Source: an uncultured Chloroflexia bacterium
GTDB lineage: Bacteria; Chloroflexota; Anaerolineae; Anaerolineales; UBA4823
Direction: 5' to 3'
Assembly: GCA_963726315.1 (NCBI GenBank)
Contig: CAVSBZ010000007.1
Span: 450,435 to 514,434, forward strand
DNA: 64,000 bases
Below, one piece after another: positions 4,046 through 19,532 of this stretch; the stretch's first letter is position 1; each line of letters starts with the position of its first letter. The notes under the pieces were generated by a model that saw nothing but the letters and a program-made list of their open reading frames with translations, did not search any database and was not told the origin of the DNA. A program made the translations under genes and the position numbers.

Positions 4046-4861
4046 TCAGAACAGTGAAAGGTAATCGACCTTGGGAAATATGGTTAGCTTGCCACCCACC
4101 GTCGCATCAACAATCCGCCTGCCAGCTTGCGTGTAAACCTCCCGCGCCCTGGTATAACCACGTTCTGAACCGGCCAGGTCAGGCAGCTGCCATTTAAACC
4201 CTTTGCCGAAATAATTCGAGGCAAAGTGGTTGGGATCATCTCCTTGCGAGACGACTGCCTGATTAGCAGCACCCTGGGTGATGTAGTTGTGGTCCACACC
4301 AACAAGGGCGACCTCGGTGAATCCCATATGATACGCCAGCTGAAGAGCCACATTAGTGACGGTGAAGCCTTCGAAAATGCGGCCTGTCAGACCTGGCGAA
4401 AAGCCCTCTTCCCCGGTGAAGTCGGTATCAAGATAGGTGATGTTCGGATCAGGGTGAAACCAATAACGCGCCCGCCAGGTGATGAATTTGGGCAAGATGA
4501 GATTTTGCATCTCAGCCGCACATTGTTCAATGACCATATCGTTCACTGCAAGCAGACAAGAAGTGGAAAAACCGAGCTCAGGAAATAGCAGGTAGATTCG
4601 GTTGAGACCGAAGGTGTACTCCGATTTAAGCTTGCTCATATCGGTTTGGCGGAGACTGGGACCGTTGCCGATGATAAAACAGCGCCTGCCGGTATATTTA
4701 TTTTCCAGGTTTTTTAGCTTGCGAACACTCTCAGACCAGCGAGAGTCAAATGGTTGTGCCAGACGGTGCCGGCCGCGGTTGTGCCACCACCAATATGCGT
4801 CTGAGCCCATTCCCCACAGTGGTGCGGGAGTGATTCTCTTCAAGGATTGTCGGACGCTCAT
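4046..4861 (-). CDS. DUF115 / MptE-like (Maf, Cst-II-like) protein; candidate CMP-ulosonic acid transferase
   Basis: CFIIGNGPSLRQTDMSKL...FGLNRIY and TVTNVALQLAYHMGFTEVALVGVDHNY parallel the GNGPSL and ITSG..A..LGY.EIYL.G.D motifs of Cst-II/Maf-type proteins. Confidence 0.5.
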   Translation of the reverse strand: MSVRQSLKRITPAPLWGMGSDAYWWWHNRGRHRLAQPFDSRWSESVRKLKNLENKYTGRRCFIIGNGPSLRQTDMSKLKSEYTFGLNRIYLLFPELGFSTSCLLAVNDMVIEQCAAEMQNLILPKFITWRARYWFHPDPNITYLDTDFTGEEGFSPGLTGRIFEGFTVTNVALQLAYHMGFTEVALVGVDHNYITQGAANQAVVSQGDDPNHFASNYFGKGFKWQLPDLAGSERGYTRAREVYTQAGRRIVDATVGGKLTIFPKVDYLSLF

Positions 4862-4892
4862 GGAATCATCACCAAACTCGTCATATATAATT

Positions 4893-5687
4893 TCATTCTG
4901 TGCTTAGGCGGGCGGTAGCGCCTCCATCGACGATCATCGCCTGCCCTGTCATGAATGATGACTGTGTGCCATCGGCCAGGAAGTAGATGGCGTGGGCGAT
5001 CTCTTCGGGAGTGCCGATGCGCCCGTTAACCGTTTTTCGCGCCAGGTTATCCAGGCGAGTCTGGATATCACCGCCCTGGACGTGATCGCGCACCAGACCG
5101 GCGCGCAGCATGGGCGTGTCTACCGCGCCGGGCAGGATGGCATTCACCCGGATATTATTAGGAGCGAACTCGATCGCCATAGCACGAGTCAGGGCAAGCA
5201 AGCCACCTTTACTGGCGGCATAAGCGGCGATGTTAGCAGAGGTCGCCACCGCATGGACGGAGGACACATTGACAATGGCGCCTCCATTGGCGGCGATAAA
5301 GAGCGGGAAAGCAAGCTTGGCACTTAAAAAGACCGAGCGCAAATTCGAGGCCATGACCGCATCCCATTCTTCCACGCTGGTCTGGATGATAGGCTTGGCA
5401 ACTTGCACAGCGGCGTTGTTTACCAAGGCGTTCAGATAACCGGTGTGTGCATTGGCCTGGCTGAAAATCGATTCCAGGTTGCCACCGATGGAGATATCAG
5501 ATTGGATAAAAAAACCATCCTCCGGAAAGGGTTCACCGAAAGGAGAACGGTCCACACCGATGACGCGCCAACCTAATGAGGCAAAGTGATGGACTGTGGC
5601 GCGGCCTATCCCGCCTGCTGCTCCGGTGACGAGTACGGTGCGCGGTGCGGATGAATTTGTGGGATCAGTTTTTGAAATCGTCGACAT
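4893..5687 (-). CDS. Short-chain dehydrogenase/reductase (classical SDR)
   Basis: VLVTGAAGGIGRA glycine-rich NAD(P) motif, NNAA, S...YAASK catalytic pattern, 264 aa. Confidence 0.85.
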   Translation of the reverse strand: MSTISKTDPTNSSAPRTVLVTGAAGGIGRATVHHFASLGWRVIGVDRSPFGEPFPEDGFFIQSDISIGGNLESIFSQANAHTGYLNALVNNAAVQVAKPIIQTSVEEWDAVMASNLRSVFLSAKLAFPLFIAANGGAIVNVSSVHAVATSANIAAYAASKGGLLALTRAMAIEFAPNNIRVNAILPGAVDTPMLRAGLVRDHVQGGDIQTRLDNLARKTVNGRIGTPEEIAHAIYFLADGTQSSFMTGQAMIVDGGATARLSTE

Positions 5688-6652
5688 CAGGTTTCCTTTG
5701 GTATTGTGATATTCAGTCCGTCGAGCAAATTATCGATCGTATTCTGGTGCACCCTTTCCCAGGCTTTCGGGCTGGAATTGGCATTATGAGAGGCAAGCAT
5801 GACATTATCCATCTTCGTCAGCGGGCTGACCGCTGAAAGAGGCTCAACTTCGAAGACATCCAGGGCAGCCCCTGCAAGCTTCCCAGATTGCAGGGCAGAG
5901 ATCAACGCCGGCTCATCGATGACTGGTCCACGCGAAGTATTGATGAGGATTGCAGACGGCTTGATGTGGGAGAGAGTATCCTTGTTCACCAGGTGGAAAC
6001 TGGATGGGTTCAGGTCACAGTTCAGGCTGACGAAATCCGAGCGTGCCAGCAGGTCTTCAAGGGTGGTCATTACAACCCCGTTCTTGGAAAGAAAGACCGG
6101 ATCGATGGGGATGATATCAGTACCGAGCAGCTGCATGCCAAAGGCATGTGCCCGGCGAATGACTGCCTTGCCGATCTTACCCACACCCACTACACCCAGG
6201 GTGCATTCACTGAGCGAGCGGCCGGGGATTTTCTCCCACTCTCCCGATTTTACCGCCCGGTCCATCCAGGGGAAGTGCCTGGCAAAGGTGAGTATATAAC
6301 CGAGGACGGTATCTGCCACTGGCAAGGTAAATGCATTAAGAGTGTTGCGCACCTGGATACCCAGACCTTCAGCCACCGTGCGGTCAATCGAATCGATCCC
6401 TGTGCCCCACTTGGAGATAACTTTCAGCCTCGGATAGCATGCCTGCAATACGCGGGCGGTGTAATGATCGTCCCCGCAGATCGTGCCATCGAATGTGCCT
6501 GCATAGGCGAGAAGCTGGTTTTCGTCCAGACGTTCATGCACCTCGGGGACGATGATCTGCAAACCGAGACCTTCAAGTAATGGGCGGAAGCGGGGCAGTA
6601 GAGGGATCATGTATGGCGCAGAGTACAGAATGGTCAGCATAGGTTCATCCAA
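5687..6652 (-). CDS. D-isomer-specific 2-hydroxyacid dehydrogenase (PGDH/GyaR-like)
   Basis: GVVGVGKIGKAV NAD-binding motif, NTSRG, DVFE.EP and HNANSS motifs typical of the family. Confidence 0.85.
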   Translation of the reverse strand: MDEPMLTILYSAPYMIPLLPRFRPLLEGLGLQIIVPEVHERLDENQLLAYAGTFDGTICGDDHYTARVLQACYPRLKVISKWGTGIDSIDRTVAEGLGIQVRNTLNAFTLPVADTVLGYILTFARHFPWMDRAVKSGEWEKIPGRSLSECTLGVVGVGKIGKAVIRRAHAFGMQLLGTDIIPIDPVFLSKNGVVMTTLEDLLARSDFVSLNCDLNPSSFHLVNKDTLSHIKPSAILINTSRGPVIDEPALISALQSGKLAGAALDVFEVEPLSAVSPLTKMDNVMLASHNANSSPKAWERVHQNTIDNLLDGLNITIPKET

Positions 6653-7322
6653 TTGTGGTCAGAGTCTGCTGCATCAAAAATTCACTGATGGCAAAATCGA
6701 GCTCATCATCGATATCCCAGGCTTCAGCGGCCTCCATATGGAACATCAAAGGGCGCTCCCCAATTCGGTTGAGACGGGTCGATAATATTTCGCGGGTGAA
6801 TATATAGATGCAGGAATTCTCTTCATAAACGGGGGGTAAATCCTGGGTTTGCAGGAGGATGGCAGGGTTATGATTTATCGCGCGGCCCAGCTGATCCCAC
6901 AAACGGACCTGGAGAGGGGTAACCGTAAAGAGGGAATCATACTCAGGTGAACCGGCAAGCATGGAAAGGATGGCACGCGAGATGGTGGATGGGCGCAGAA
7001 GTGGGTTGGTGGTGTGGGTCTGCAGGTAAAAATCAGCCTCCACCTGGGATGTGTCGTAGAGCAGGATTTCATTCATAGAGACCGTATCGCCAGACAGGTG
7101 AGCGGAGCGCTCGAGGATGCGGACCTTAGGGAAATGCTCCTGCAGTCCAGCTATGATCGGTGGGCTATCGGTGTCGACCACCACCTGGGAAATTTCAGGG
7201 CAGGCAAGCAGAGACCCGATGATGTGGTGAAAGAGCGGTTTCCCTGCCAGTGGGCGAAAGTTCTTGCCTGGGACACGCTGGGAGTGGTGTCGCATGGGTA
7301 CAAGGGCGGCAATTGTGGGCAT
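6645..7322 (-). CDS. CMP-sugar type cytidylyltransferase (NeuA/KdsB-like, CTP_transf_3)
   Basis: IAALVPMRHHSQRVPGKNFRPLAGKPLFHHII N-terminal motif; 225 aa; overlaps the downstream dehydrogenase gene by 8 nt. Confidence 0.7.
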   Translation of the reverse strand: MPTIAALVPMRHHSQRVPGKNFRPLAGKPLFHHIIGSLLACPEISQVVVDTDSPPIIAGLQEHFPKVRILERSAHLSGDTVSMNEILLYDTSQVEADFYLQTHTTNPLLRPSTISRAILSMLAGSPEYDSLFTVTPLQVRLWDQLGRAINHNPAILLQTQDLPPVYEENSCIYIFTREILSTRLNRIGERPLMFHMEAAEAWDIDDELDFAISEFLMQQTLTTIG

Positions 7323-7323
7323 A

Positions 7324-8287
7324 TTACCTCTGGTGAGAACGTGTTCCTTCTATGGAATCATATTGGATGGGGGATATATCCCTGGGTGCGGAGGAGGTTG
7401 GTAAATTTGCACCGCGGGGATAATAGAATGTCTGGCGCAGCTGCCAGGTGAGAGGTCCTGACTGCCGGTAACCTTTATAGGTGCCCCAAAACTGCATCCA
7501 GCGGAACCAGATTATTTCGGCGAAATGAGTGACCAGTTTACCCTGGCGGGCAGCATGAGAGGCATCGCTGGTGATATTGGTGGTCAGGTTATGGAACAAA
7601 TCCCATAAGTTGTAATGTTCGTGGGGAAAAAGGCGGTTAAAAGCCATGGCCTCACGGCGATACCGGTTGTATACCGCATGGGGAGTCTCTTCATGGATAT
7701 GTACCACTTCAGCTTCAGCCACATAGCTGATACCAAAACCCTGTGCAGTGATGCGCTGAGCCCATTCCAGGTCTTCCAGACCTGGCAGGGATTCATCGTA
7801 ATGGAATCGCTCCCACAAGGAACGGCGGATGGCGGCGTTGGCATTATTGCAGAATGGATGCGCCTGGTGGGGCTGGGAGCTCTCCGGATACCAATGGAGA
7901 AATATCTGGCCTTCGGAGAATTTGTTTAATCTGCTAGCCGCGCTGTTTACCGTAGGTGAGTGCCACTTGAGGGTCAGCAAAGGGTGCCAGAAGGCTTTCC
8001 AGCCAGTCTGGATAGACAGGGTAGACGTGGGCACTGGCTATGACGATGAACTCACCATGAGATTCCAAAATTCCCTGGTTTATAGAGTGTCCGAATGTGA
8101 AATCCTGGGGCTGAATATGCACCACCCTGACGGGGTAGCGCGAGGCAATTTCGAGGGTACCATCGGTCGAGCCTGAATCAACCAGGATGATCTCGTGGTC
8201 GGTGAGGGATTGGCTGGCGATGCCCTCTAACAACTGGCCAATATGTTTCTCTTCATTGCAGGCACGGATTACGATGGAGGTGCGCAT
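7324..8287 (-). pseudogene. GT2 glycosyltransferase (rhamnosyltransferase-like) split by a +1 frame disruption near 7934..7940
   Basis: The N-terminal half (MRTSIVIRACNEEKHIGQLLEGI...ILVDSGSTDGT...ALTYGKQRG*) stops at TAG 7936..7934. The homologous continuation (SRLNKFSEGQIFLHWYPESS..HPFCNNANAAIRRSLW...GLEDLEWAQR) is in the +1 frame. Removing one nt in CGCGGCTAG restores YGKQRGSRLNKFSEG. Confidence 0.7.
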
Positions 8288-8324
8288 GGTAAGTGAAGTT
8301 ATATACGCAGATTGACGTCTTGAC

Positions 8325-9980
8325 TCAGAGGTCTGAGGAAAGCTGGAAATCACCGTCCTCGAGGATGCCGGCCAGGATGGTTTTCATGGTGGGAGAGGAA
8401 GTGGGTGAAAGCGACTGGAGGGCAAACTTTTTGAGCCTGACGAAACCGGGCCAGATGCCATCTTCCTGGATGAAATCGGTGAATGGGAGGGAGGAACGGT
8501 AGATCTGATAATATAGGAACCGACGGGCATTGCGCTGGTACTCCTGAGGAATAGAAATTTGATCGATTGTCAGAAAATCTTGCGCAAGCTGGCGGTACTC
8601 CTGGAGTGAGCTGGGGAAAAAGACAGTGGGGAGTTGGGTGAAACGGGCACGACCGGCACATAGCACCGGAACACCCATGATCGAGGCTTCGAGACCAATG
8701 GTGGAGTTGTACACCATAATGAATTTTGACCGCTGGATAAGCTCGTATGAGCTGAGGGGCTGCTGTGAATCGATGAAGATAAGGTTGGGAAGAGAATCAG
8801 CCTGGTTTTGTGAGACCCATTGGCTAACGCTCTCCTGGCTGGATTTTCCGGGGCGGGTTTCATCCGGATGAGCTCGCACCACGAATAAAGTATCTGGGTG
8901 GTCACGGGCGATCTCCAACACCAGGTCGAGCCAGGCAAACATGTGCGGAAAGAGTACGTTGGAGTGCGGCTGGCTGGTATCGAAGATGACATTGGTAAAG
9001 ACAGGCACAATCTGCTTGAAGGCACCGGCACGCTCTACAAAGCTTGCATCCAACCCCTTCATCTCAGGCCAGAACTGGACACCAGCCATGGAAAACTGAC
9101 CATGAAAGCGCTGGCTGATATAAGCATCCAGCCTTTCATCCTGCGCAGGGCTCAGCCTGAAATCATCGGGTACATGCAGTGGGTAAGCGGTGGCTTCTCC
9201 CGGGGTGAAGAATGCGCTGAACGGCTGCAGACCCACTTCATGGGTGATGCAACGGATGCCTCGTTGAGACGCCACCCAGCGGGCGGTTGCCTCGGGAAAG
9301 AACTGCCCGTTGAACAGGACAACTGCCTGCGGAGAGGTATTATCCAACAGGGTGGAAAATTCTTGAGCTACGTGATAAGCGGAGAGGATGTATTTCTGAT
9401 ATAGGGAGCGGGTTGGCACATCATCCGGCAGGTGGTGGCGGCGCAGCACCCAACGCATCGAAGGGAGAACCAGCCGTCCGAGAGGCAGGTCTGGAGCTGT
9501 CGCTCCGTAGGGAGAACCATTTTCTGCTCGAGAGCGGTACTCAAATCCCATCAAGCCGTCCAGGGAGAGACCGCGCAGCAATTCGATGAGCTCTGCGTGG
9601 TTTTGGTAAGTGAAGGGAATTGCCAGGCTACTCGAATAGAACCAACGCGATTGCGCGATGCAGGCTTTGCAAGGGGGAGCCTTGGCTGGATCATTCCGGT
9701 CAGTGCCTAAAACACATCGGCTCATACCTGCCTGGCAGACAAAGTGAACTACAGGGACTTTTTGGAGACGGAGCACCCAGGCTGTAAGCAGGGAAAATGC
9801 GGCATTCAAACTCATCCCGACCAGGCGGGTGGAGGCATTGAACAAGACCACCGGTTTTACCTCGGGATCGGAGTGGGTGTGGCGGCTGAGCTGGGAGCTG
9901 TAGTTGAAGGTGCGCAGGTTGATTTTTTGCCGCTGAAGGCGCTGTAGCAGCACTTCAGCGAATTGGAGCTTATCTGGCAT
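8325..9980 (-). CDS. Capsule-biosynthesis-type (KpsS/KpsC, Capsule_synth-like) glycosyltransferase with N-terminal Cys cluster
   Basis: VPVFTNVIFDTSQ...LFVVRAHPDE and FIMVYNSTIGLEASIMGVPVLCAGRARF resemble the KpsS/KpsC family pattern (..Q..D.q..., .K.HP, S..G.EA...G.PV...G...Y). Cys pattern CQAGMSRC...CKAC near the N-terminus. Confidence 0.5.
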   Translation of the reverse strand: MPDKLQFAEVLLQRLQRQKINLRTFNYSSQLSRHTHSDPEVKPVVLFNASTRLVGMSLNAAFSLLTAWVLRLQKVPVVHFVCQAGMSRCVLGTDRNDPAKAPPCKACIAQSRWFYSSSLAIPFTYQNHAELIELLRGLSLDGLMGFEYRSRAENGSPYGATAPDLPLGRLVLPSMRWVLRRHHLPDDVPTRSLYQKYILSAYHVAQEFSTLLDNTSPQAVVLFNGQFFPEATARWVASQRGIRCITHEVGLQPFSAFFTPGEATAYPLHVPDDFRLSPAQDERLDAYISQRFHGQFSMAGVQFWPEMKGLDASFVERAGAFKQIVPVFTNVIFDTSQPHSNVLFPHMFAWLDLVLEIARDHPDTLFVVRAHPDETRPGKSSQESVSQWVSQNQADSLPNLIFIDSQQPLSSYELIQRSKFIMVYNSTIGLEASIMGVPVLCAGRARFTQLPTVFFPSSLQEYRQLAQDFLTIDQISIPQEYQRNARRFLYYQIYRSSLPFTDFIQEDGIWPGFVRLKKFALQSLSPTSSPTMKTILAGILEDGDFQLSSDL

Positions 9981-10098: not shown

Positions 10099-10974
10099 TC
10101 AATCTTTCACCCGGCGCAGCTTGCGCAGGGAGGGGACTTCGCTATCATAGACGCGCTTGACTCCATCTCCCAATGCCTGCTCGGTGACACGGATATACTT
10201 AACCAGGCGTTCCATCCCACCGGGCTCGACCGAGGCTGCCTGGTCGCTGCCCCACATGGCTCTATCGAGGGTGATGTGCCGTTCAACCAGGCAGGCGCCC
10301 ATGGATACGGCAACGACGGTGGGGATCAAACCGACCTCGTGACCCGAATAGCCTATTGGGCAGGAAAATTCTTCCACGAGAGTGCGGATCATCTTCAGGT
10401 TCAACTCCTCAGGGTCACACGGGTAGGTGCTGGTAGCGTGGGTGATGAGCAGGTTATCCTCACCCAATATTTTTACTGCCGCCTTGATCTGGCGCATGGT
10501 GGACATGCCGGTTGAAAGGATGACCGGCTTGCCTGTGTTACGGGCATGCAACAAGAGGTTTTTATCGGTCAGAGAGGCGGAGGGAATTTTATAGCAGATG
10601 GGGTTGAACTGCTGCAGAAAATCAACCGAGGGTTCGTCCCAAACCGACGCAAACCAGGGAATATTCTTCTGCTGGCAGTAACGGTCAATTTCGCGGTATT
10701 CATTCAAGTCAAACTCAACCTTGTAACGATAATCCAGGTACGAGATATACCCCCAGGGCGTCTCGCGCATATGCTTCTGCTGGTCAGGCGGGACGCACAG
10801 CTCAGGGGTACGTTTTTGAAGCTTTACAGCATCGATGCCTGTTTTTGCAGCTACATCGATCAGCGATTTTGCAATATCAACACTGCCATTATGGTTAATG
10901 CCAATCTCAGCGACGATAAAAGTCGGGTAGCCCTCACCCACATTTCGATTACCGATCATAATTTCACGTGGCAT
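10099..10974 (-). CDS. NeuB-family ulosonic acid (9-phosphate?) synthase, TIM-barrel only, no SAF domain
   Basis: FIVAEIGINHNGSVDIAKSLIDVAAKTGIDAVKLQKR, IGYSGHE, ERHITLD are NeuB signatures. The 291-aa protein ends just before where the SAF/AFP-like domain would start. Confidence 0.8.
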   Translation of the reverse strand: MPREIMIGNRNVGEGYPTFIVAEIGINHNGSVDIAKSLIDVAAKTGIDAVKLQKRTPELCVPPDQQKHMRETPWGYISYLDYRYKVEFDLNEYREIDRYCQQKNIPWFASVWDEPSVDFLQQFNPICYKIPSASLTDKNLLLHARNTGKPVILSTGMSTMRQIKAAVKILGEDNLLITHATSTYPCDPEELNLKMIRTLVEEFSCPIGYSGHEVGLIPTVVAVSMGACLVERHITLDRAMWGSDQAASVEPGGMERLVKYIRVTEQALGDGVKRVYDSEVPSLRKLRRVKD

Positions 10975-11042
10975 AGTATTTCACCTTTCTGATCTATTTA
11001 TTTCCGGGAATAATGATTACTACGAACGAAAAAGAATGAAAT

Positions 11043-12254
11043 CTACCCCTGGTTGTTGAGAATACGGTCGCACAATTCCCTCACCGCACCACGGCCACCA
11101 GGGCGAGATAACACCACATCCGCCTGTGGGATCACATCTGGGTGGGCATCCGCGACGACGACTGCACAACCGACCAGCGGAAAGCACGATAAATCATTCA
11201 CGTCATTACCAAGGTAAACCACGTGGGCTGGGTCAAGCTGGCGTTCGAGAATCAGCCGCTTTAATGTGGTTGACTTATCGGACAAACCCTGGATAACGGG
11301 CAGGTTTAATTTTTGGCAGCGGGCAGCGACCACCGGGTTCGTCTCGGTGGAAAGGACAACCATGGGGATCCCTGCTTTATGAAGCATTCCAATCCCTAAT
11401 CCATCCCGGCGGTTGGCAGCAACCATTTCGTGCCCATCCTGGTCCACCCACACACGGTCATCGGTCATCACGCCATCAAAATCCAAAACCAGCAGATCGA
11501 CCTTCGGCGGCAAGGGTCGTTTACTGCTGCCTGGATGGACCATTGGCAGGTCACCCTGGGAGATGATCCATTCTGCAAGCTGCCAGTCGCGCAACGTGTC
11601 AATATCGATGGCATAACGAGGATCCATGTGCAGCGGCAGGATGACATCTCCACTCAACGAATTCTTTTTGAGGATGGTGGACACCCGTATAGCATCAATG
11701 TGACCGGTCTGCCAGTAGGTTTGGGGAAGCGCCTGGCGTGGGGCGTTATAGGGTTCATCCACACCAGGGAAGGCAAGTAAGGGAGACATGTGACCCTGGT
11801 CATCCATGCGCCACATTTTATAGGGGTTTTGACCAGATGGGATCACACCACGCATCGAATCAGCTTCGGGATGCTCGAGTAGGATCTGCAGCGCCTGGTC
11901 GACACAGTCGGGTGGGCGAAGCGGCGAGGTGGGTCGGAGCTGCACCACCACGTCTGGCTGATAGCCTTCTTTTTCTTTGAGCCAATGCAGGGCATGGGTG
12001 AAGACGGGCAGGTCGGTGGTGTCGTCGCGGGAAAACTCCTCCGGACGCAGGAAGGGGGCTTCAGCACCGAAGCTTTGTCCAGTACAGGCAATCTCATCAT
12101 CATCGGTCGATACGATGGTGCGAGTCACCTGCCTGGATTGCTGCGCCGCAGCAATCGAGTATGCCAGGAGCGGGTAGCCGGCGAGAGGCTTGATATTTTT
12201 GCGGGGAATGCTTTTGGAGCCTCCCCGAGCAGGGATTAGAGCAAGGATTTCCAT
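11043..12254 (-). CDS. Bifunctional CMP-ulosonic acid synthetase (N-term) / KdsC-type HAD phosphatase (C-term)
   Basis: N-term ILALIPARGGSKSIPRKNIKPLAGYPLLAYSI (NeuA-like). C-term LVLDFDGVMTDDRVWVD...VLSTE...YLGNDVNDL with intact HAD motifs I-IV of the KdsC/KDN-9-P phosphatase type. Confidence 0.8.
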   Translation of the reverse strand: MEILALIPARGGSKSIPRKNIKPLAGYPLLAYSIAAAQQSRQVTRTIVSTDDDEIACTGQSFGAEAPFLRPEEFSRDDTTDLPVFTHALHWLKEKEGYQPDVVVQLRPTSPLRPPDCVDQALQILLEHPEADSMRGVIPSGQNPYKMWRMDDQGHMSPLLAFPGVDEPYNAPRQALPQTYWQTGHIDAIRVSTILKKNSLSGDVILPLHMDPRYAIDIDTLRDWQLAEWIISQGDLPMVHPGSSKRPLPPKVDLLVLDFDGVMTDDRVWVDQDGHEMVAANRRDGLGIGMLHKAGIPMVVLSTETNPVVAARCQKLNLPVIQGLSDKSTTLKRLILERQLDPAHVVYLGNDVNDLSCFPLVGCAVVVADAHPDVIPQADVVLSRPGGRGAVRELCDRILNNQG

Positions 12255-12275
12255 GTGGGTCTATCCAATCGTTGA

Positions 12276-13130
12276 CTACCAGGCAGTCCAGCCACCATCG
12301 ACCACCAGGTTGGAACCGGTCATATAAGATGAGGCATCCGATGCCAGGAAAAGAATGGCGCCGTTCATCTCGTCTTTGTTCGCCATACGGCCCATAATGG
12401 TGCGGGCGGAGTAGGCTGTGAGGAATTCCTCATCGTGGTTATTGTAGATACCACCCGGAGTGAGGGCGTTGACGCGGATCTCGCTACCGGCATAGTAGGC
12501 GGAGAGATAGCGGGTGAGTCCCAACACACCGGCTTTGGTGACCGAATAATACACCGGCTTATAAGACGTTTGCAGACCACCACGCTGGTAGATGCGCTGA
12601 TCGGGAGCGACCAAACCATAAGTGGAGCATATATTGATAATGGAGCCTTTCTTTCCCTGGGCGAGCATCGGCTTGACGGCTGCCTGGCAGCACAGGAACA
12701 TACCGGTCAGGTTTACATCCAGGGCAGCTTTCCAGGCATCTAGCGGGTAGTCTTCGAAGGAACCGGAGAGTGCGCCGCGTTTTGCATTCGCCACCAGTGC
12801 ATCCGGGTCGAACTTGGGGTCTAGGGCAGCAGAGTTGACCAGGATATCCAACCGACCGAACGTCGCTAGGGTTTCAGCGACCAGGTTACGGACCGACTCA
12901 GGCTGCGTGACGTCGGTAGTGATCCCCAGGCAGTGGTAACCATCCTGGATCAATGAGGTGGCGAGGACATTGATGCCATCCGCATTAAGATCGGCAACGA
13001 CTACCGCAGCACCGGCTTCTGCGAGAGTACGGCAGAATTCCTTTCCCAGCAAGCCTGGTCCACCAGTGACGACGGCGACCCTACCTGAAAGGTCGAATTT
13101 TTGCAATACAGCATTCATTTGTATTCCCAT
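12276..13130 (-). CDS. SDR-family oxidoreductase
   Basis: VAVVTGGPGLLGKEF, NSAA, YSVTKAG catalytic pattern, 284 aa. Confidence 0.8.
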   Translation of the reverse strand: MGIQMNAVLQKFDLSGRVAVVTGGPGLLGKEFCRTLAEAGAAVVVADLNADGINVLATSLIQDGYHCLGITTDVTQPESVRNLVAETLATFGRLDILVNSAALDPKFDPDALVANAKRGALSGSFEDYPLDAWKAALDVNLTGMFLCCQAAVKPMLAQGKKGSIINICSTYGLVAPDQRIYQRGGLQTSYKPVYYSVTKAGVLGLTRYLSAYYAGSEIRVNALTPGGIYNNHDEEFLTAYSARTIMGRMANKDEMNGAILFLASDASSYMTGSNLVVDGGWTAW

Positions 13131-13212: not shown

Positions 13213-14862
13213 TCAAGGAAGCTGTTCGGGTGAATAAAAGTAGATTTCTCCATCTGGGGTTTGGGCATAAAGAGACAAATTTCTGGTTAAATTTTTCAAC
13301 CGTATGGCGGATTTATCTCCATATAATTCCTGGAATTGCTGGTAGCGAGTATTAAACAATACCAAGGCAGCTCCATTTTCGCGAAATATAATCTGGGCAG
13401 GATCTGCAAGGTCATCACCATAACGGTTGGTTAAGGTTTGGATGGTTTGGTCAACTAATTCTGATAGATCATAGGCAGGACGACCGGTATAGAATAATAA
13501 GAAAGCTGACTCGTTCGAAATGATCGGAGTTTCCGCAGGAAGTATCTCGACTAAATTCAATATTTTTGTATTTCGCCAGGCTTTAGCGGTGTAGCCGGCT
13601 CCTTCCCGGTGATAAAGAGAGACCAGATCGGCAGTATCATGCAGGTAGGAGATAAATATCCCGACGGCGAAACCAAGGGGGATGATAAATAACCACCTGG
13701 CTGATGGCCATGGTCGAATAAAGAAAAGGACTAATGAGAAGATACCCAATAAGATTGCAATGTGGACAGGTAGGAACGTACGGCTGATCAGATCGGGTGC
13801 CGGAGAGGTAAAAATGTAGCTAAACCCAAGGATGAATAGGTAGGCAGCAGCCAAGACCAACAACAAAATAGCTAAAACCAATCCATTCGGGGGGTCAAGA
13901 AGTTTCTGGTTGGTTTTTCGCATTCGCCAGACCACAACGGAAAAAAGGACCAGAAAAATAAGGAGGAAAATGACGATTAAATTCTGGGCGAGGTTGTATG
14001 AGTAGCGGGGCAGGATTGAGGTAAAAGGAAGCCAGGACCAGAATATTTCCATCGCGGCCAGCTTAAATTCAGTAAATCGCTCAGTAAAGTTTATCTGGAC
14101 CGGGTAACTCCTCACACCAAGTGACTGAACCCTTAACCAAACCAACCAGAGTATGGTCGGCACACAGCCCAGCACTCCATAAATCAATGCATCACTTGCC
14201 CGATTTTTCCAGGGCTTATGCTCAAAAATCACCAGGATGAACACGCCGGTGAATATGAATGCAAGCCCGGAATAGCGGGTAAGCGTCGCCAGCCCAACGG
14301 CTGCACCAGCAATTAGCAGCTGATAAGTACGATTGGATTTTAAGAAAAGTAAGAGCAAGCATAAACTTGATAATCCAGTGAACAGGAACAGCGGTTCAGA
14401 CATGGCCCCACTGAAGACATCCACCACAACCGGCATACTAAAAAGCATCAGGCTGCTGACAATGGAAAGCCATGCGGATTGGGTGTAGGCATAGATCGTA
14501 ATTCCCAATACCAGGATGGTCGATCCGAACAGGATGATATCCATCCAACGGGCTGCGGTAACCAGGTCCGCACCGAATAATCCGAAGAAACCTAGAACGA
14601 GGGAGTAAAAGGGGGGATGTAAGGACAGGGGATGGAATGCGCCTGATGCACCGTAAAGACCCAGGCCATGTCCCTGGATCAGATTGCGAGCGGAGACAAT
14701 ATATTCGGTGGAATCGCTGTAAACCCACGGACCCCAGACAGTGCTGTAGAATATCATGACCGATCCCATCAGGGCAATGATGGCGACCAGCACTACGGTC
14801 AGGTTTTGCTTACTCAAACCTTTCATGCGAATTTTTTTATTTGGATTGCTGTGAGAATGCAA
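13213..14862 (-). CDS. Large polytopic membrane protein, GT-C-like (ArnT/PMT-like) candidate
   Basis: 549 aa. The first loop carries YSDSTEYIVSARNLIQGHGLG (acidic loop motif as in GT-C enzymes). More than 10 hydrophobic segments and a soluble C-terminal domain. Markedly AT-richer than its neighbours. Start ambiguous. Confidence 0.5.
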   Translation of the reverse strand: MHSHSNPNKKIRMKGLSKQNLTVVLVAIIALMGSVMIFYSTVWGPWVYSDSTEYIVSARNLIQGHGLGLYGASGAFHPLSLHPPFYSLVLGFFGLFGADLVTAARWMDIILFGSTILVLGITIYAYTQSAWLSIVSSLMLFSMPVVVDVFSGAMSEPLFLFTGLSSLCLLLLFLKSNRTYQLLIAGAAVGLATLTRYSGLAFIFTGVFILVIFEHKPWKNRASDALIYGVLGCVPTILWLVWLRVQSLGVRSYPVQINFTERFTEFKLAAMEIFWSWLPFTSILPRYSYNLAQNLIVIFLLIFLVLFSVVVWRMRKTNQKLLDPPNGLVLAILLLVLAAAYLFILGFSYIFTSPAPDLISRTFLPVHIAILLGIFSLVLFFIRPWPSARWLFIIPLGFAVGIFISYLHDTADLVSLYHREGAGYTAKAWRNTKILNLVEILPAETPIISNESAFLLFYTGRPAYDLSELVDQTIQTLTNRYGDDLADPAQIIFRENGAALVLFNTRYQQFQELYGDKSAIRLKNLTRNLSLYAQTPDGEIYFYSPEQLP

Positions 14863-15820
14863 GGGCAGTCAATGATAGACGTAATACCTGAACGCCATCC
14901 TGAAGGCTGCAAAGCGGTTCAATATCCCCATTCAACAGGTTACGGAAGTGGCGCAGCTCATCCAGGAACATCCAATTGCGCTCGAACCCTTCTGGTGGGT
15001 AGATTTCTTGTAATGTAACTTCCTTATCACCCTCGCCAGGTTTGGTCAGGCGGACGATGCCATCAGCATTGTCCCAGCGCAAGCTGCCGTGTGTGCCGAT
15101 AATTTCCAGCCAATGGGAGGCAGGGCGCTGGAGGTAATCGAGGTGAACGCTGCCAACTGCTCCGCTGGCAAAAAGCAATGCAATCTCAGCAGTATCTTCC
15201 ACCGGCAGATTCAGACCTGCACGGCTGGTGTAGGCTGACAGTGATTCAACCTCGCCAAGGAGCCAGCGCAGGTAATCTAATGGATGGGATAAAGTGAGTA
15301 CCACGCCCCCGCCCAGCTCGCGTCGGGCAGCATATCCCTGTTTGTAATTTTCCCAGGGATGCCAGTCGGGGAGATATTCACCCCAATGGGCGTGAGCGGA
15401 AACAGGTTTTCCAATCGCTCCACCATCCAGCAACTTTTTTACCTGCTGTAAACCAGGGTGAAAGCGGAACTGGAACCCGACCAATACCTGGCAGTGGTTC
15501 TGTTGGACGGTGTCTTGCAGCTCATCTAGCTTTGCCAGGGAATGGGAAACGGGTTTTTCGATCATTAGATGGCAGCCGCATTGTGCGGCGGGAACGGCGA
15601 CATCCATGTGCAGGGCAGTGGGATTGGATATAATCACTGCATCGGGTTGATAAGCCAGTGCAGCACGCAGGTCACTCTCGACCGGAAAATCTTTTAGCTC
15701 ATCATCGGGGAGGGTGGATTGGTGAGTATGGTAGACCAGGAGATCCCGCTCTCCCAGAGTGAGCAGGTTGCGAAAGTGTCGCCGACCTATGGATCCAAAC
15801 CCTGCGATCAGGTATTTCAT
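14837..15820 (-). CDS. Gfo/Idh/MocA-family NAD(P) oxidoreductase
   Basis: MKYLIAGFGSIGRRH Rossmann N-terminus, EKP motif (MIEKPVS), 327 aa. Confidence 0.85.
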   Translation of the reverse strand: MKYLIAGFGSIGRRHFRNLLTLGERDLLVYHTHQSTLPDDELKDFPVESDLRAALAYQPDAVIISNPTALHMDVAVPAAQCGCHLMIEKPVSHSLAKLDELQDTVQQNHCQVLVGFQFRFHPGLQQVKKLLDGGAIGKPVSAHAHWGEYLPDWHPWENYKQGYAARRELGGGVVLTLSHPLDYLRWLLGEVESLSAYTSRAGLNLPVEDTAEIALLFASGAVGSVHLDYLQRPASHWLEIIGTHGSLRWDNADGIVRLTKPGEGDKEVTLQEIYPPEGFERNWMFLDELRHFRNLLNGDIEPLCSLQDGVQVLRLSLTALAFSQQSK

Positions 15821-16812: not shown

Positions 16813-17691
16813 TTATGAGGTGACAATGGGTAACCAGGCGCGTTGAGGAGCAAGGCGCTCAACAATACGGCGGCGGAAGAACCCGAACTGGCGGTGGAAG
16901 TGCACCTGCCGATCGGGTTTGAATACATACTGAGTGCTGCTATCAGCTTGCGCCAGGAGGGTGAGATAGAGCGGGATGAGCTCCGAACGAGGCTGCCCGT
17001 GGGCTCGTAGCTGGGTAACCCGGTAGCCAGCTTTCTGCACTACCTGGGTGAGTGTGTGTGTGCTGAAGGAGGTGAGGTGAGCCACTTCGAAGCAATCATG
17101 AGCGTACAGGTTGGGCACTTCCAGGAGCAGCCAGCTATCAGGTTCAAGTAAGCTGGTACGCAGGTTTTGAAGATACCCGACCGGATCTGGCAGATGCTCC
17201 AACACATGCATCATGCTCACAAGGTTGAAAGGCGGATGACCTGCGTTTTGAAGCTCATCCAGTGAGGCATAGACCTCCAGCCCCAGGGAGCGGGCATATT
17301 GGCGGTAAACTGTTCCCGGTTCAACCCCAACAGCCTCAGCCTGATAGCGGGCTTGAAATTGCTGCAATAAGATACCGGTCGAGCAGCCAACATCCAGGAT
17401 GCGGGCAGCCGAGCTAACCCACGGAGTGATAAATTCCAGCGATACTTTGGCACGGTCAGACTGCACTGACAGGTCTTTCGGGTTGGGACCTTCCTGCCCC
17501 TGGTACAGCAGGCGGTATTCGGCCTCGTAAAATGCCTGGCTTTCTGCTTCGGTCATGCGCGGCGTTTGGTAGACCAGCCCACAGCTGCGGCAAATGTTGT
17601 TGATCACCGGTTGACCGCGGAATTCGCGCCGGTCAAACAGTGCACTCGCGTTTGCCCCACAAAGAGGGCAGGGGACAACGATCTCAGTCAT
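16813..17691 (-). CDS. Class I SAM-dependent methyltransferase with N-terminal CxxC..CxxC zinc ribbon
   Basis: MTEIVVPCPLCGANAS...CRSCGLVYQTP then ILDVGCSTGILL SAM motif. The track ORF extends to 17889, but that extension is low-complexity and overlaps the upstream gene, so the start is set at ATG 17691. Confidence 0.8.
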   Translation of the reverse strand: MTEIVVPCPLCGANASALFDRREFRGQPVINNICRSCGLVYQTPRMTEAESQAFYEAEYRLLYQGQEGPNPKDLSVQSDRAKVSLEFITPWVSSAARILDVGCSTGILLQQFQARYQAEAVGVEPGTVYRQYARSLGLEVYASLDELQNAGHPPFNLVSMMHVLEHLPDPVGYLQNLRTSLLEPDSWLLLEVPNLYAHDCFEVAHLTSFSTHTLTQVVQKAGYRVTQLRAHGQPRSELIPLYLTLLAQADSSTQYVFKPDRQVHFHRQFGFFRRRIVERLAPQRAWLPIVTS

Positions 17692-18637
17692 CAGCCGCTC
17701 GAAGTTGACCAAGCTTATAGGCAGCCCGCCCGCGGAATTCCTTCCAGGCTTTAACGGGGTGGAAAACCGAGAAGAACAGGTGGGCAAATGCCATCGAGTG
17801 GAACTTGACCAGGGGGAAAATCTCTGTCTCACGCAGCAGCTTTTGGGAACGCAGAGGGATTTTTTGGAGCCTGTCATTCCCCAGGGCATAATCAGCGTCC
17901 TGCAGCGTGAATACGGTGCGACGACCGCCGGCTAAACGCAGGTTCTCGGACGATTCGGGGAGCCGGTAATGAGGCTGACCATTGGGGAGGTGTGAGTAGT
18001 CGTGATCCTGGTGGATGACCGGGATAGATGCACTCGCGTCGATGACTGGCATATGCTGTATGCGGGCGTGGTAGATCATCCAGTTGTCCCATCCGGCACG
18101 ACCAATGGCGAAGCCTGGCAGGTCGGTGAAACATGAACGCGGGAAAATAAAATAATCACTGCCGGCAGGGGGGTGCAGGCGTCCACGTGATTTTAAATCC
18201 TCAAGGAGGCGTAAATCCCAACCGGATGTAAATTCGAGCGGCTCCTTGATTTCCAAGTCATAACGCTGACCGACGATGAGGAACAGTTTTTCCTGACAGT
18301 AAACCTGGCTGGCAGCTGTAACGAATTGGGGAGTGAGCAGGATATCGGCATTGACATATGCCAGCAAGGGGGAGGTGCTAATCTGCCGTGCCGCAGCGAA
18401 AATTGAGCTAACCAGTGGTGTACCGGATTGATTTCTGGCGACCTCCGGCAGGTATTGAATGTCTGTTTCGGCAGAAAACTCTGCCACGCCAGGCTCATCC
18501 CCGATCATTACCACATTCACCTCGTCTCCCAGGTTCTGCCAGGAAAAGATGGCGTTGCGCTGGATCAGGTTAATATGCGGGTGGGTGAAGGGCTTGGGAG
18601 CGGTAAAAATGGTGATGAAAGGATCGGGAGAAGCCAT
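17684..18637 (-). CDS. Uncharacterised GT-A-like protein (putative glycosyltransferase)
   Basis: MASPDPFITIFTAPKPFTHPHINLIQRNAIFSWQNL...LLAYVNADILL. No family is confidently recognised. Start chosen 4 nt after the upstream stop; the track extension to 18874 is rejected. Confidence 0.4.
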   Translation of the reverse strand: MASPDPFITIFTAPKPFTHPHINLIQRNAIFSWQNLGDEVNVVMIGDEPGVAEFSAETDIQYLPEVARNQSGTPLVSSIFAAARQISTSPLLAYVNADILLTPQFVTAASQVYCQEKLFLIVGQRYDLEIKEPLEFTSGWDLRLLEDLKSRGRLHPPAGSDYFIFPRSCFTDLPGFAIGRAGWDNWMIYHARIQHMPVIDASASIPVIHQDHDYSHLPNGQPHYRLPESSENLRLAGGRRTVFTLQDADYALGNDRLQKIPLRSQKLLRETEIFPLVKFHSMAFAHLFFSVFHPVKAWKEFRGRAAYKLGQLRAADD

Positions 18638-18641
18638 TGAA

Positions 18642-19532
18642 TTAGACGCCTGAATTGCGCTGGTCGACATCAAAAGCAGATTTATGCGGAACGGCTGCAT
18701 TGATGAAGCCCAGCTCGGGTTCCATCTGCAAGAGAGAAAGAACCTCCTGCCAGCTGAAAAGCTCGAATGAATCAAAGTGAGAATAGACCTGGCGCACGAA
18801 TTCGAGATCTGCCGGGGTATCCACCGTCCAGCGCAGGGAACCAAGGTCAGGAATGTGGTTGAGCAAGGCAACATGGAAGCCGAGAGGAGTGGTAGCTTGC
18901 TCCCTATACCACACCGCTTCGGGTGGCACGTCAGGCTGGGGGAACGAGATGCCCTGATAGATGTAAGGCATCACATGCTCACGCTGGAAACCCTGGTCAG
19001 CTTCCTTCCAGGCGCGTTCCAGGGCTTCGAAGGAACATACTTCAACATCCAGACCGATTGGGAGCGTCCGGCGCCAGGGTGGGGGTAATCGATTGGCAGA
19101 AAAATCATTTGGATATGTAGTCAGAGATGGAGTATCAGCTTTCTGGTAAGAAATTGCTGATGCCTGCTTTATAGATTTGCCAAGAAACGTATCAACCGTC
19201 AGATCCAACACATCTGGATCGAGGAGCGGGCAATCGGCTGTCAAGCGGATGATTGCATCGGCGTTGTACTGCACTGAGGCGCGATAGAAGCGGTCCAGCA
19301 CATCGTGGAGGCTACCTCGCCAGCAAGGGATACCCTTGATGAGGCAGTATTGCTCCAAGACGTCATCCGAGGGATCGGTGGTGGTGGCAATCACGATGCC
19401 ATCAACCGACCTGGCTTTCATCGCCCGCGCAACAACGTGCTCGAGCATTGGACGCCCGCCGATATCCATCAAGACCTTCCCCGGCAGGCGGGAAGAAGAC
19501 ATACGAGCCTGGATAATAGCTAGTTTATTCAT
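18642..19532 (-). CDS. SpsF-type cytidylyltransferase (CMP-ulosonic acid synthetase family)
   Basis: MNKLAIIQARMSSSRLPGKVLMDIGGRPMLEHVVARA is the characteristic SpsF/CTP_transf_3 N-terminus; 296 aa. Confidence 0.7.
   Translation of the reverse strand: MNKLAIIQARMSSSRLPGKVLMDIGGRPMLEHVVARAMKARSVDGIVIATTTDPSDDVLEQYCLIKGIPCWRGSLHDVLDRFYRASVQYNADAIIRLTADCPLLDPDVLDLTVDTFLGKSIKQASAISYQKADTPSLTTYPNDFSANRLPPPWRRTLPIGLDVEVCSFEALERAWKEADQGFQREHVMPYIYQGISFPQPDVPPEAVWYREQATTPLGFHVALLNHIPDLGSLRWTVDTPADLEFVRQVYSHFDSFELFSWQEVLSLLQMEPELGFINAAVPHKSAFDVDQRNSGV

Follow-up and report, generated by a model that had tools for sequence, protein, structure and literature searches.

The stretch of DNA considered here (the window) comprises 64,000 nucleotides of contig CAVSBZ010000007.1 from an uncultured Chloroflexia bacterium. 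It carries three adjacent genes that are predicted to take part in the synthesis of a nonulosonate, a sugar of the sialic acid type. The three open reading frames (ORFs) were confirmed at their coordinates and are co-directional. They encode a synthase of the NeuB family, a fusion of a cytidine monophosphate (CMP)-nonulosonate synthetase with a phosphatase that belongs to the haloacid dehalogenase (HAD) superfamily, and a short-chain dehydrogenase/reductase (SDR):

10099..10974, minus strand: SAF-less NeuB-family synthase, 291 aa, with a PF03102 match and without a SAF match.
11043..12254, minus strand: NeuA/PseF-type CMP-nonulosonate synthetase (residues ~1-235) fused to a KdsC-type C0 HAD phosphatase (~250-403), 403 aa, from Pfam, NCBIfam and PDB matches.
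12276..13130, minus strand: classical SDR oxidoreductase, 284 aa, first gene of the triad, with adh_short and adh_short_C2 matches.

In the initial annotation, the SDR was described as following the other two genes. The 284-aa SDR is real, but it comes first in the direction of transcription: the SDR is followed after 21 nt by the fusion, after a further 68 nt by NeuB, and after 118 nt by the next gene downstream. The genome, from Anaerolineales (Chloroflexota), is 4.52 Mb in size and 94.9% complete, and the nearest homologues bear names such as Anaerolineales or Anaerolineaceae bacterium. Comparison with related loci indicates that the window holds one copy of an operon-like module, conserved in Anaerolineales, with the order (GFO)-SDR-NeuA::HAD-SAF-less NeuB-KpsC/BFO_1060-like transferase, where GFO stands for an oxidoreductase of the GFO/IDH/MocA family. 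The cassette had been called self-contained, which does not hold, since the SDR, usually a GFO-type oxidoreductase, and the downstream transferase are conserved parts of it. A scan for promoters and terminators between window positions 8000 and 16000 gave no signal over the shuffled expectation.

The conservation of the module was followed in two samples. The first holds 201 Chloroflexota genomes; its tally includes one genome (G173) with weak matches only, on which no claim is built. The second holds 80 named loci with NeuB orthologues of at least 61% identity, none of them from Bacteroides or Streptomyces, and came from a scan with a 13-sequence alignment. The full-length NeuA::HAD fusion was found in 17 of the 17 same-order genomes of the first sample; in Chloroflexota outside the order, NeuA and HAD are separate genes or are not found. 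Of 11 same-order loci that were fetched, 10 have the SDR directly before the fusion and nine have NeuB directly after it. Among Chloroflexota loci with sufficient flank, the HAD adjoins NeuB in 45 of 50, where it is always fused to NeuA, and the same adjacency is seen in 19 of 23 loci of other phyla. An SDR is present no more than 3 kb upstream of NeuB in 41/45 Chloroflexota loci and 12/20 loci of other phyla. About 50 named loci of Anaerolineae carry the triad, and a metagenome-assembled genome labelled Anaerolinea thermophila (L046) also has the module.

Close orthologues of the NeuB (61–65% identity) stand beside a KdsC-type HAD in other phyla as well. The neighbour is a NeuA::HAD fusion in Kiritimatiellales, Phycisphaerales, Gemmatimonadaceae, Myxococcales and Pseudomonadota, and a standalone HAD in Bacteroidota, Ignavibacteria and Chlorobi; the arrangement GFO-SDR-NeuA::HAD-NeuB recurs with all four genes at one Pirellulales locus. 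In addition, proteins that are 55–59% identical to the 291-aa NeuB occur as HAD+NeuB (P0246), NeuA+HAD+NeuB (P0247) and NeuB+cytidylyltransferase (P0244) fusions. This recurrent adjacency across phyla, together with the Rosetta-stone fusions, is the strongest evidence that the NeuB clade releases a phosphorylated product. It supports a functional coupling of synthase and phosphatase, and such a coupling would imply that the phosphate is still present when the NeuB product is formed. Taken together with the type of the HAD domain (see below), it supports the phosphatase-dependent route that had been proposed for the cassette.

The 291-aa synthase covers the full TIM-barrel domain of PF03102 (model positions 1–241 of 241, E 7e-77), and the Pfam search returned no SAF match; since only 118 nt lie between NeuB and the next gene, there is no room for a SAF remnant. 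The barrel was therefore correctly described as ending before the SAF domain. A canonical NeuB/NnaB or PseI was taken to score over the equivalog cut-off and to possess a C-terminal SAF domain supplying Arg314. The protein belongs to neither class, as it scores 252.9 bits on the NeuB equivalog TIGR03569 (cut-off 399.65), with an alignment that stops at model position 272, and 203.9 bits on the PseI equivalog TIGR03586 (cut-off 340.25), with an alignment that stops at position 267. Neither of these matched NCBIfam models is a model of a synthase of ketodeoxynonulosonic acid (Kdn) 9-phosphate. The catalytic residues of Neisseria meningitidis NeuB (E25, K53, Q55, K129, Y186, H215, E234, H236 and D247) are kept as E23, K51, Q53, K129, Y184, H212, E231, H233 and D244, and the position of E134 is occupied by Ser.

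The loop after the Lys that binds phosphoenolpyruvate (PEP) reads K51-x-Q53-K54-R55-T56-P57, then R70..P73-W74-G75. It is invariant among the NeuB orthologues and at least 90% conserved down to ~40% identity, and PseI, SpsE and N. meningitidis NeuB have other residues at the positions of K54 and R55. The synthases of 3-deoxy-arabino-heptulosonate 7-phosphate and 3-deoxyoctulosonate (Kdo) 8-phosphate bind the phosphate of the aldose with a Lys...Arg-Thr/Ser motif, and the K51..G75 region may likewise contain a phosphate site. A review attributes the preference of human NANS for the phosphorylated substrate to the alpha2-beta2 loop that corresponds to this region (PMC8208679). The lack of a SAF domain is not by itself a mark of phospho-sugar use: animal NANS, as far as we know, has a SAF domain. 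The Leptospira SAF-less NeuB of known structure (6ncs) is without much of the long loop between Q53 and E87; this places it in a different SAF-less lineage and it was ruled out as a model for the clade.

More than 8000 database relatives of the NeuB were found, of which the best 120 are 86–99% identical and nearly all 291 aa long; the nearest 50%-identity cluster representatives are almost all 270–300 aa and so SAF-less. The nearest Atlas cluster is mostly actinobacterial, and look-ups of clusters of 350–360-aa relatives gave no useful names. A 289-aa NeuB cluster of the Atlas is commonest in Uroviricota, and two phage records hold SAF-less NeuB homologues of 48–50% identity (LR756508.1:322778-323581, from a 484-kb uncultured phage, and MH319754.1:87482-88294, from a marine virus). 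Further NeuB fusions occur among the database proteins (P0309, P0337 and P0297): one joins NeuB to an MptE/Maf-like domain (941 aa), another joins NeuB-SAF to an AP_endonuc_2 TIM barrel (633 aa), and the third (963 aa) combines two NeuB domains with SAF and a cytidylyltransferase. The 633-aa protein may be the counterpart of a Leptospira fusion with an endonuclease-like C-terminal domain (PMC3438082).

In the fusion protein, CTP_transf_3 (PF02348, 1.9e-19) lies at residues 5–138 and PseF-like similarity at 4–230. The PseF model gives 155 bits against a cut-off of 205.7, and the assignment to the NeuA/PseF type follows from the Pfam domain, the PARGGSK loop and the DID motif. Similarity to HADs of the KdsC/YrbI type occupies residues 251–403, with DFDGVMTD starting at residue 258 and GNDVNDL at 349. 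Its PDB matches include the Streptomyces avermitilis HAD 3mmz (4e-45), a CMP-N-acetylneuraminate (Neu5Ac) synthetase (6ifd, 3.6e-33), the Bacteroides thetaiotaomicron Kdn-9-phosphate phosphatase BT1713 (3e81, 3e-20) and the C-domain of mouse CMAS (3ewi, 2e-17). The NeuA residues R10, S13, K14, K19, D217 and D219 and the HAD residues D258, D260, S302, E304, K315, K327, D351 and D354 are invariant in 120 homologues, so the fusion and its intact phosphatase motifs were correctly recognised at the outset. More than 8000 database relatives of the fusion were found, the best 120 being 73–94% identical and nearly all 403 aa long, and the architecture is very common in metagenomes. A third homologue search, aimed at short standalone HADs, mostly returned fragments of Anaerolineales fusions.

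The HAD domain belongs to the KdsC/YrbI C0 family TIGR01670 (cut-off 106.95), with 106.6 bits on the whole fusion and 109.8 in the genome search, and a profile search of the genome found it to be the sole gene of the KdsC family. Its type is suggested by the phosphatases of related loci. The best solved relative of a Hymenobacter HAD adjoining an orthologous NeuB is BT1713, and the next PDB entries are its mutants 4hgq (E56A) and 4hgr (E56A/K67A), which indicates that E56 and K67 were the residues that the depositors probed. Every NeuB-linked HAD that was aligned, fused or free, has Glu and Lys at these positions (E304 and K315 here), whereas two KdsC-like paralogues, from a Pirellulales and a Puia genome (L098, L102), have Arg or Gly at the first and Glu or Tyr at the second. 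Daughtry et al. reportedly regarded in 2013 the gain of the Glu as a mark of the Kdn-9-phosphate phosphatase lineage, in which fusion with the transferase is said to be common. These residue patterns support an assignment of the domain to the Kdn-9-phosphate phosphatase type rather than to the Kdo-8-phosphate type.

The model scores allow a different reading, in which a NeuB-fold enzyme takes the place of KdsA on arabinose 5-phosphate and the KdsC-like domain is a Kdo-8-phosphate phosphatase of an eight-carbon route. The HAD indeed scores higher on KdsC models (126 and 107 bits) than on the Kdn-9-phosphate phosphatase equivalog NF058599 of BT1713 (88 bits, cut-off 180). With 144–159 bits, the standalone HADs that accompany orthologous NeuBs in Bacteroidota and Ignavibacteria are also under that cut-off. 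The product of the gene downstream of NeuB weakly resembles the Kdo transferases KpsC and KpsS, and the Hymenobacter and Ignavibacteriales genomes have no second KdsC-family gene over the cut-off. However, the Glu and Lys of BT1713 are retained where the two compared paralogues differ, and to our knowledge no NeuB-family enzyme makes an octulosonate; the eight-carbon route is thus very improbable. As a separate observation, the one KdsC-family gene over the cut-off in each of Hymenobacter setariae (G201, L089) and the Ignavibacteriales genome (G202, L087) stands beside the SAF-less NeuB, and this sole enzyme may serve both pathways if those bacteria also make Kdo.

With the phosphate established as a likely feature of the pathway, the question of the sugar arises. 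No NeuC gene was found over the model cut-off in the 94.9%-complete genome (best 86 bits versus 235.9), and a profile search of the same genome gave no match to NanE. Two Epimerase_2 genes are present, both far under the NeuC cut-off, and the one located 3 kb to the left of the window is scored as WecB. The statement that the window has no NeuC is therefore literally true, with a WecB-type epimerase just beyond its left edge, and the search of the rest of the genome revealed no NeuC over the cut-off. As an N-acetylated 6-phosphate substrate is not evidently available, a non-aminated hexose 6-phosphate is favoured.

An animal-like route, in which N-acetylmannosamine (ManNAc) 6-phosphate and PEP give Neu5Ac-9-phosphate, Neu5Ac and CMP-Neu5Ac in turn, would use the same set of enzymes: a synthase, a 9-phosphatase and a CMAS-like fusion suit it equally with the Kdn route. 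For a NeuB-phosphatase fusion that they reported from Leptospira, Ricaldi et al. arrived at such a route (PMC3438082), a neighbouring 289-aa Atlas cluster is automatically named 'N-acylneuraminate-9-phosphate synthase', and a WecB gene lies 3 kb outside the window. The product of WecB is UDP-ManNAc, however, and not ManNAc-6-phosphate, for which no source was found: neither NanE nor a NeuC over the cut-off was detected and the module has no GNE-like epimerase-kinase, ROK-type kinases not having been searched for. The conserved block is also without an N-acetyltransferase, and a Neu5Ac product is accordingly considered unlikely.

Further evidence on the substrate comes from the gene contexts of NeuB, which fall into three groups: 52 loci of Chloroflexota where an SDR is present, 15 of Bacteroidota, Ignavibacteria and Chlorobi where a class III aminotransferase accompanies an SDR, and six others without an SDR in the flank. 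The NeuBs of all three share 76 invariant positions, and not a single conserved residue is specific to one group. This suggests that the condensation substrate is probably the same in all contexts, from which it would follow that the SDR acts after the condensation or supplies the common sugar phosphate.

The choice between these two roles concerns the SDR and three genes that flank the triad:

13213..14862, minus strand: PMT_2-like membrane protein, 549 aa, between the GFO gene and the SDR gene, with a PF13231 match.
14837..15820, minus strand: GFO/IDH/MocA-family oxidoreductase, from Pfam matches.
8325..9980, minus strand: KpsC / BFO_1060 / TIGR04396-like protein, 551 aa, candidate transferase for the CMP-sugar, with weak PF05159, NF046086 and TIGR04396 matches.

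Of the 80 loci, 35 have a GFO homologue upstream of the SDR, which it directly precedes in most relatives. Here the pair is split by the PMT_2-like gene, which looks like an insertion rather than a conserved part of the module, because only 7 of the 80 loci have a homologue and the GFO gene abuts the SDR in most. The gene for the 551-aa protein is found directly downstream of NeuB in 45 of the 80 loci, all of them from Chloroflexota; the protein matches PF05159 weakly (30.8 bits) and KpsC (6mgd) at E 0.4. The SDR, with its adh_short and adh_short_C2 domains, may tailor the nonulosonate or supply its precursor. Its best NCBIfam models are NF006619 (189.2 bits, cut-off 255) and the gluconate 5-dehydrogenase NF006070 (185.6 bits, cut-off 279). 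NF006619, derived from PRK09186, represents the PtmA family, and the SDR falls short of its cut-off even though it is the best match by E-value.

If the SDR and GFO enzymes supply the precursor, for instance by a redox C2-epimerisation of glucose 6-phosphate to mannose 6-phosphate in an organism that lacks a classical phosphomannose isomerase, the product would be plain CMP-Kdn. This would agree with NeuB pocket residues that are identical with or without an SDR nearby, with the failure to find a type I phosphomannose isomerase in the genome (the type II match is marginal only), and with the PtmA-like leaning of the SDR. Precursor supply is the task assigned in legionaminic acid clusters to a 254-aa SDR (PtmA) and a 326-aa oxidoreductase (PtmF) (PMC4481668), an accessory pair to which the SDR and GFO enzymes would be analogous. 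Yet the SDR stays well below the NF006619 cut-off (189 versus 255), the likeness of the GFO enzyme to PtmF is only a lead, and the window encodes a GDP-mannose dehydratase, which implies another source of mannose phosphates. The pairing of the SDR with a class III aminotransferase in other phyla also fits oxidation and amination of the product better than a supply of mannose 6-phosphate. Plain CMP-Kdn, with the two enzymes in precursor supply, is considered the less probable alternative.

This pairing occurs in a sister module of Bacteroidota, Ignavibacteria and Chlorobi, which is built around a SAF-less NeuB of 61–65% identity (L074, L078, L081, L083-L085, L087-L092, L095 and L097; for example L087:3232-8870). 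Its order, where all members are in the fetched flank, is BFO_1060-like transferase, KdsB/SpsF-like cytidylyltransferase, class III aminotransferase of the glutamate-semialdehyde-aminomutase-like kind, SDR, standalone BT1713-like HAD and NeuB. The SDR is 47–51% identical to that of Anaerolineales, and its association with the aminotransferase fits an oxidation followed by an amination of a sugar. The sister module is a candidate for making an amino-nonulosonate independently of NeuC. The most parsimonious view would make the SDR of Anaerolineales a dehydrogenase of the nonulosonate, with the GFO enzyme as the partner in reduction. More generally, we tentatively propose that the SDR is a post-condensation nonulosonate dehydrogenase whose partner in Anaerolineales and Pirellulales is the GFO enzyme and, in Bacteroidota, Ignavibacteria and Chlorobi, the class III aminotransferase. 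The Anaerolineales product could then be an undescribed Kdn epimer or keto-derivative that serves as a core envelope sugar, and the sister product an amino-nonulosonate.

A phosphate-dependent, Kdn-type CMP-nonulosonate route is well supported by these comparisons of genes and residues. The favoured reading, to which we assign a probability of roughly 0.6, is that the module makes a CMP-activated Kdn-type sugar via its 9-phosphate, and that this sugar is tailored by the SDR and GFO enzymes and passed to a surface glycan. The analysis shows the identities of the domains, the intact catalytic residues, the conservation of the module and the coupling of synthase, phosphatase and cytidylyltransferase; substrate, product and the place and order of action of the SDR and GFO enzymes are inferred as follows. 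NeuB would condense PEP with a common aldose 6-phosphate, most plausibly mannose 6-phosphate, to a 3-deoxy-nonulosonate 9-phosphate of the Kdn-9-phosphate type. The C-terminal HAD domain of the fusion is predicted to take off the 9-phosphate and the N-terminal domain to form the CMP-sugar. Oxidation and re-reduction of a nonulosonate hydroxyl is the most likely joint task of the SDR and the GFO enzyme, which would give a Kdn derivative or epimer instead of plain Kdn, and the 551-aa transferase would add the sugar to the surface glycan made by the surrounding Wzm/Wzt glycan island. The CMP-KDN-like product of the initial annotation thus survives as far as the type of route is concerned; because the SDR, the GFO enzyme and the transferase are conserved parts of the module, the product itself may be a modified Kdn.

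Several points weigh against this reading. The HAD domain scores lower on the Kdn-9-phosphate phosphatase equivalog than on KdsC, and the putative likeness of NeuB to the Kdn-9-phosphate synthases (BT1714 and those of Prymnesium parvum and Streptomyces) is drawn from indirect evidence, its HAD linkage and its invariant K-x-Q-K-R-T-P loop. The genome search found no type I phosphomannose isomerase and only a marginal type II match. Just six loci make up the group that has no SDR, and in those genomes the SDR could sit elsewhere. Lastly, we know of no Kdn pathway that needs an SDR or a GFO enzyme, and the roles given to these two are guesses for that reason.

The surroundings of the module are rich in related genes. 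Two NeuB genes are present in the genome, both inside the window, and the second one bears a SAF domain and adjoins a PseB gene. Besides the fusion, the window has two further cytidylyltransferases; their blocks, at 4046-7322 and 16813-19532, show synteny with the module at many loci of Anaerolineales, so that the conserved unit is the whole ~20-kb stretch including both. One of the blocks consists of CT225, a 2-hydroxyacid dehydrogenase, an SDR and an MptE/Maf-like protein, and the other of an SpsF-like cytidylyltransferase, a 396-aa uncharacterised protein and a methyltransferase. A gene for a family 2 glycosyltransferase at 7324-8353 is present as two overlapping ORFs, with the N-terminal half at 7934-8353 and the C-terminal half at 7324-8034. 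Relatives match both halves side by side in the same order, which fits a frameshift here. To the left of the window (L005:14361-18412, equal to C7:446360-450411), WecB (495 bits, a non-hydrolysing UDP-GlcNAc 2-epimerase) is followed by rmlD, rmlA and rmlB, and the glycan island therefore runs past the left edge.

A module of this type, with a SAF-less NeuB, a KdsC-type phosphatase and a CMP-synthetase, is known and widespread, and another copy adds little. The value lies in the part played by the SDR and GFO enzymes and, likewise, by the aminotransferase of the sister module. If the SDR is a nonulosonate dehydrogenase, the sister module possibly leads to neuraminic acid itself and dispenses with NeuC and UDP-GlcNAc chemistry. 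Filamentous Anaerolineales abound in sludge, sediments and soils, and their cell-envelope chemistry is little known; the presence of the module throughout the sampled members of the order suggests a Kdn-type acidic sugar as a core component of their surface.

Among known systems, the Kdn route from mannose 6-phosphate via Kdn-9-phosphate and a phosphatase has been experimentally established in B. thetaiotaomicron and P. parvum (PMC6200933). As in these organisms (BT1714, BT1713 and a CMP-Kdn synthetase in the former), the module combines a NeuB-family synthase predicted to act on a sugar 6-phosphate with a KdsC-family C0 HAD and a CMP-synthetase. The HAD keeps the equivalents of E56 and K67 of BT1713, and the NeuA domain matches PpNeuA of P. 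parvum (9t4z) at 2.5e-17. The module differs in the fusion of the phosphatase to the cytidylyltransferase, in a HAD that stays under the NCBIfam equivalog cut-off, and in the conserved extra SDR, GFO oxidoreductase and KpsC-like transferase. The Streptomyces cluster for teichulosonic acid, a Kdn polymer (SCO4879-SCO4881), is related through 3mmz, an S. avermitilis HAD to which the HAD domain is closer than to any other solved protein, although this 176-aa chain is apparently a standalone HAD. We know of no SDR or GFO gene in the SCO4879-SCO4881 operon. SAF-less forms as such account for ~30% of NeuB sequences, and entire branches of them occur in environmental bacteria, among these Streptomyces species including S. 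scabiei (PMC8208679).

The legionaminic acid clusters of the Campylobacter and Plesiomonas type offer a parallel for the additional enzymes, as an SDR (~254–284 aa) and a ~326-aa oxidoreductase flank the CMP-nonulosonate synthetase there (PMC4481668), and the SDR studied here has NF006619 as its best model, albeit below the cut-off. The homology of the GFO gene to PtmF is a lead only, and those clusters use NeuC-type chemistry and a SAF-bearing LegI and have no phosphatase. Vertebrate CMAS has the same domain order as the fusion, an N-terminal cytidylyltransferase followed by a C-terminal KdsC-like HAD. The initial annotation had drawn this parallel, with an apparently active phosphatase as the distinguishing feature; the domain order and the intact motifs stand, and the architecture is not new, because the CMAS C-domain has already been reported from some bacteria (PMC8636478). 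In mouse CMAS, the C-domain is devoid of phosphatase activity and has a role in oligomerisation (PMC8636478), whereas the HAD motifs of the fusion in the Anaerolineales module are all intact and invariant.

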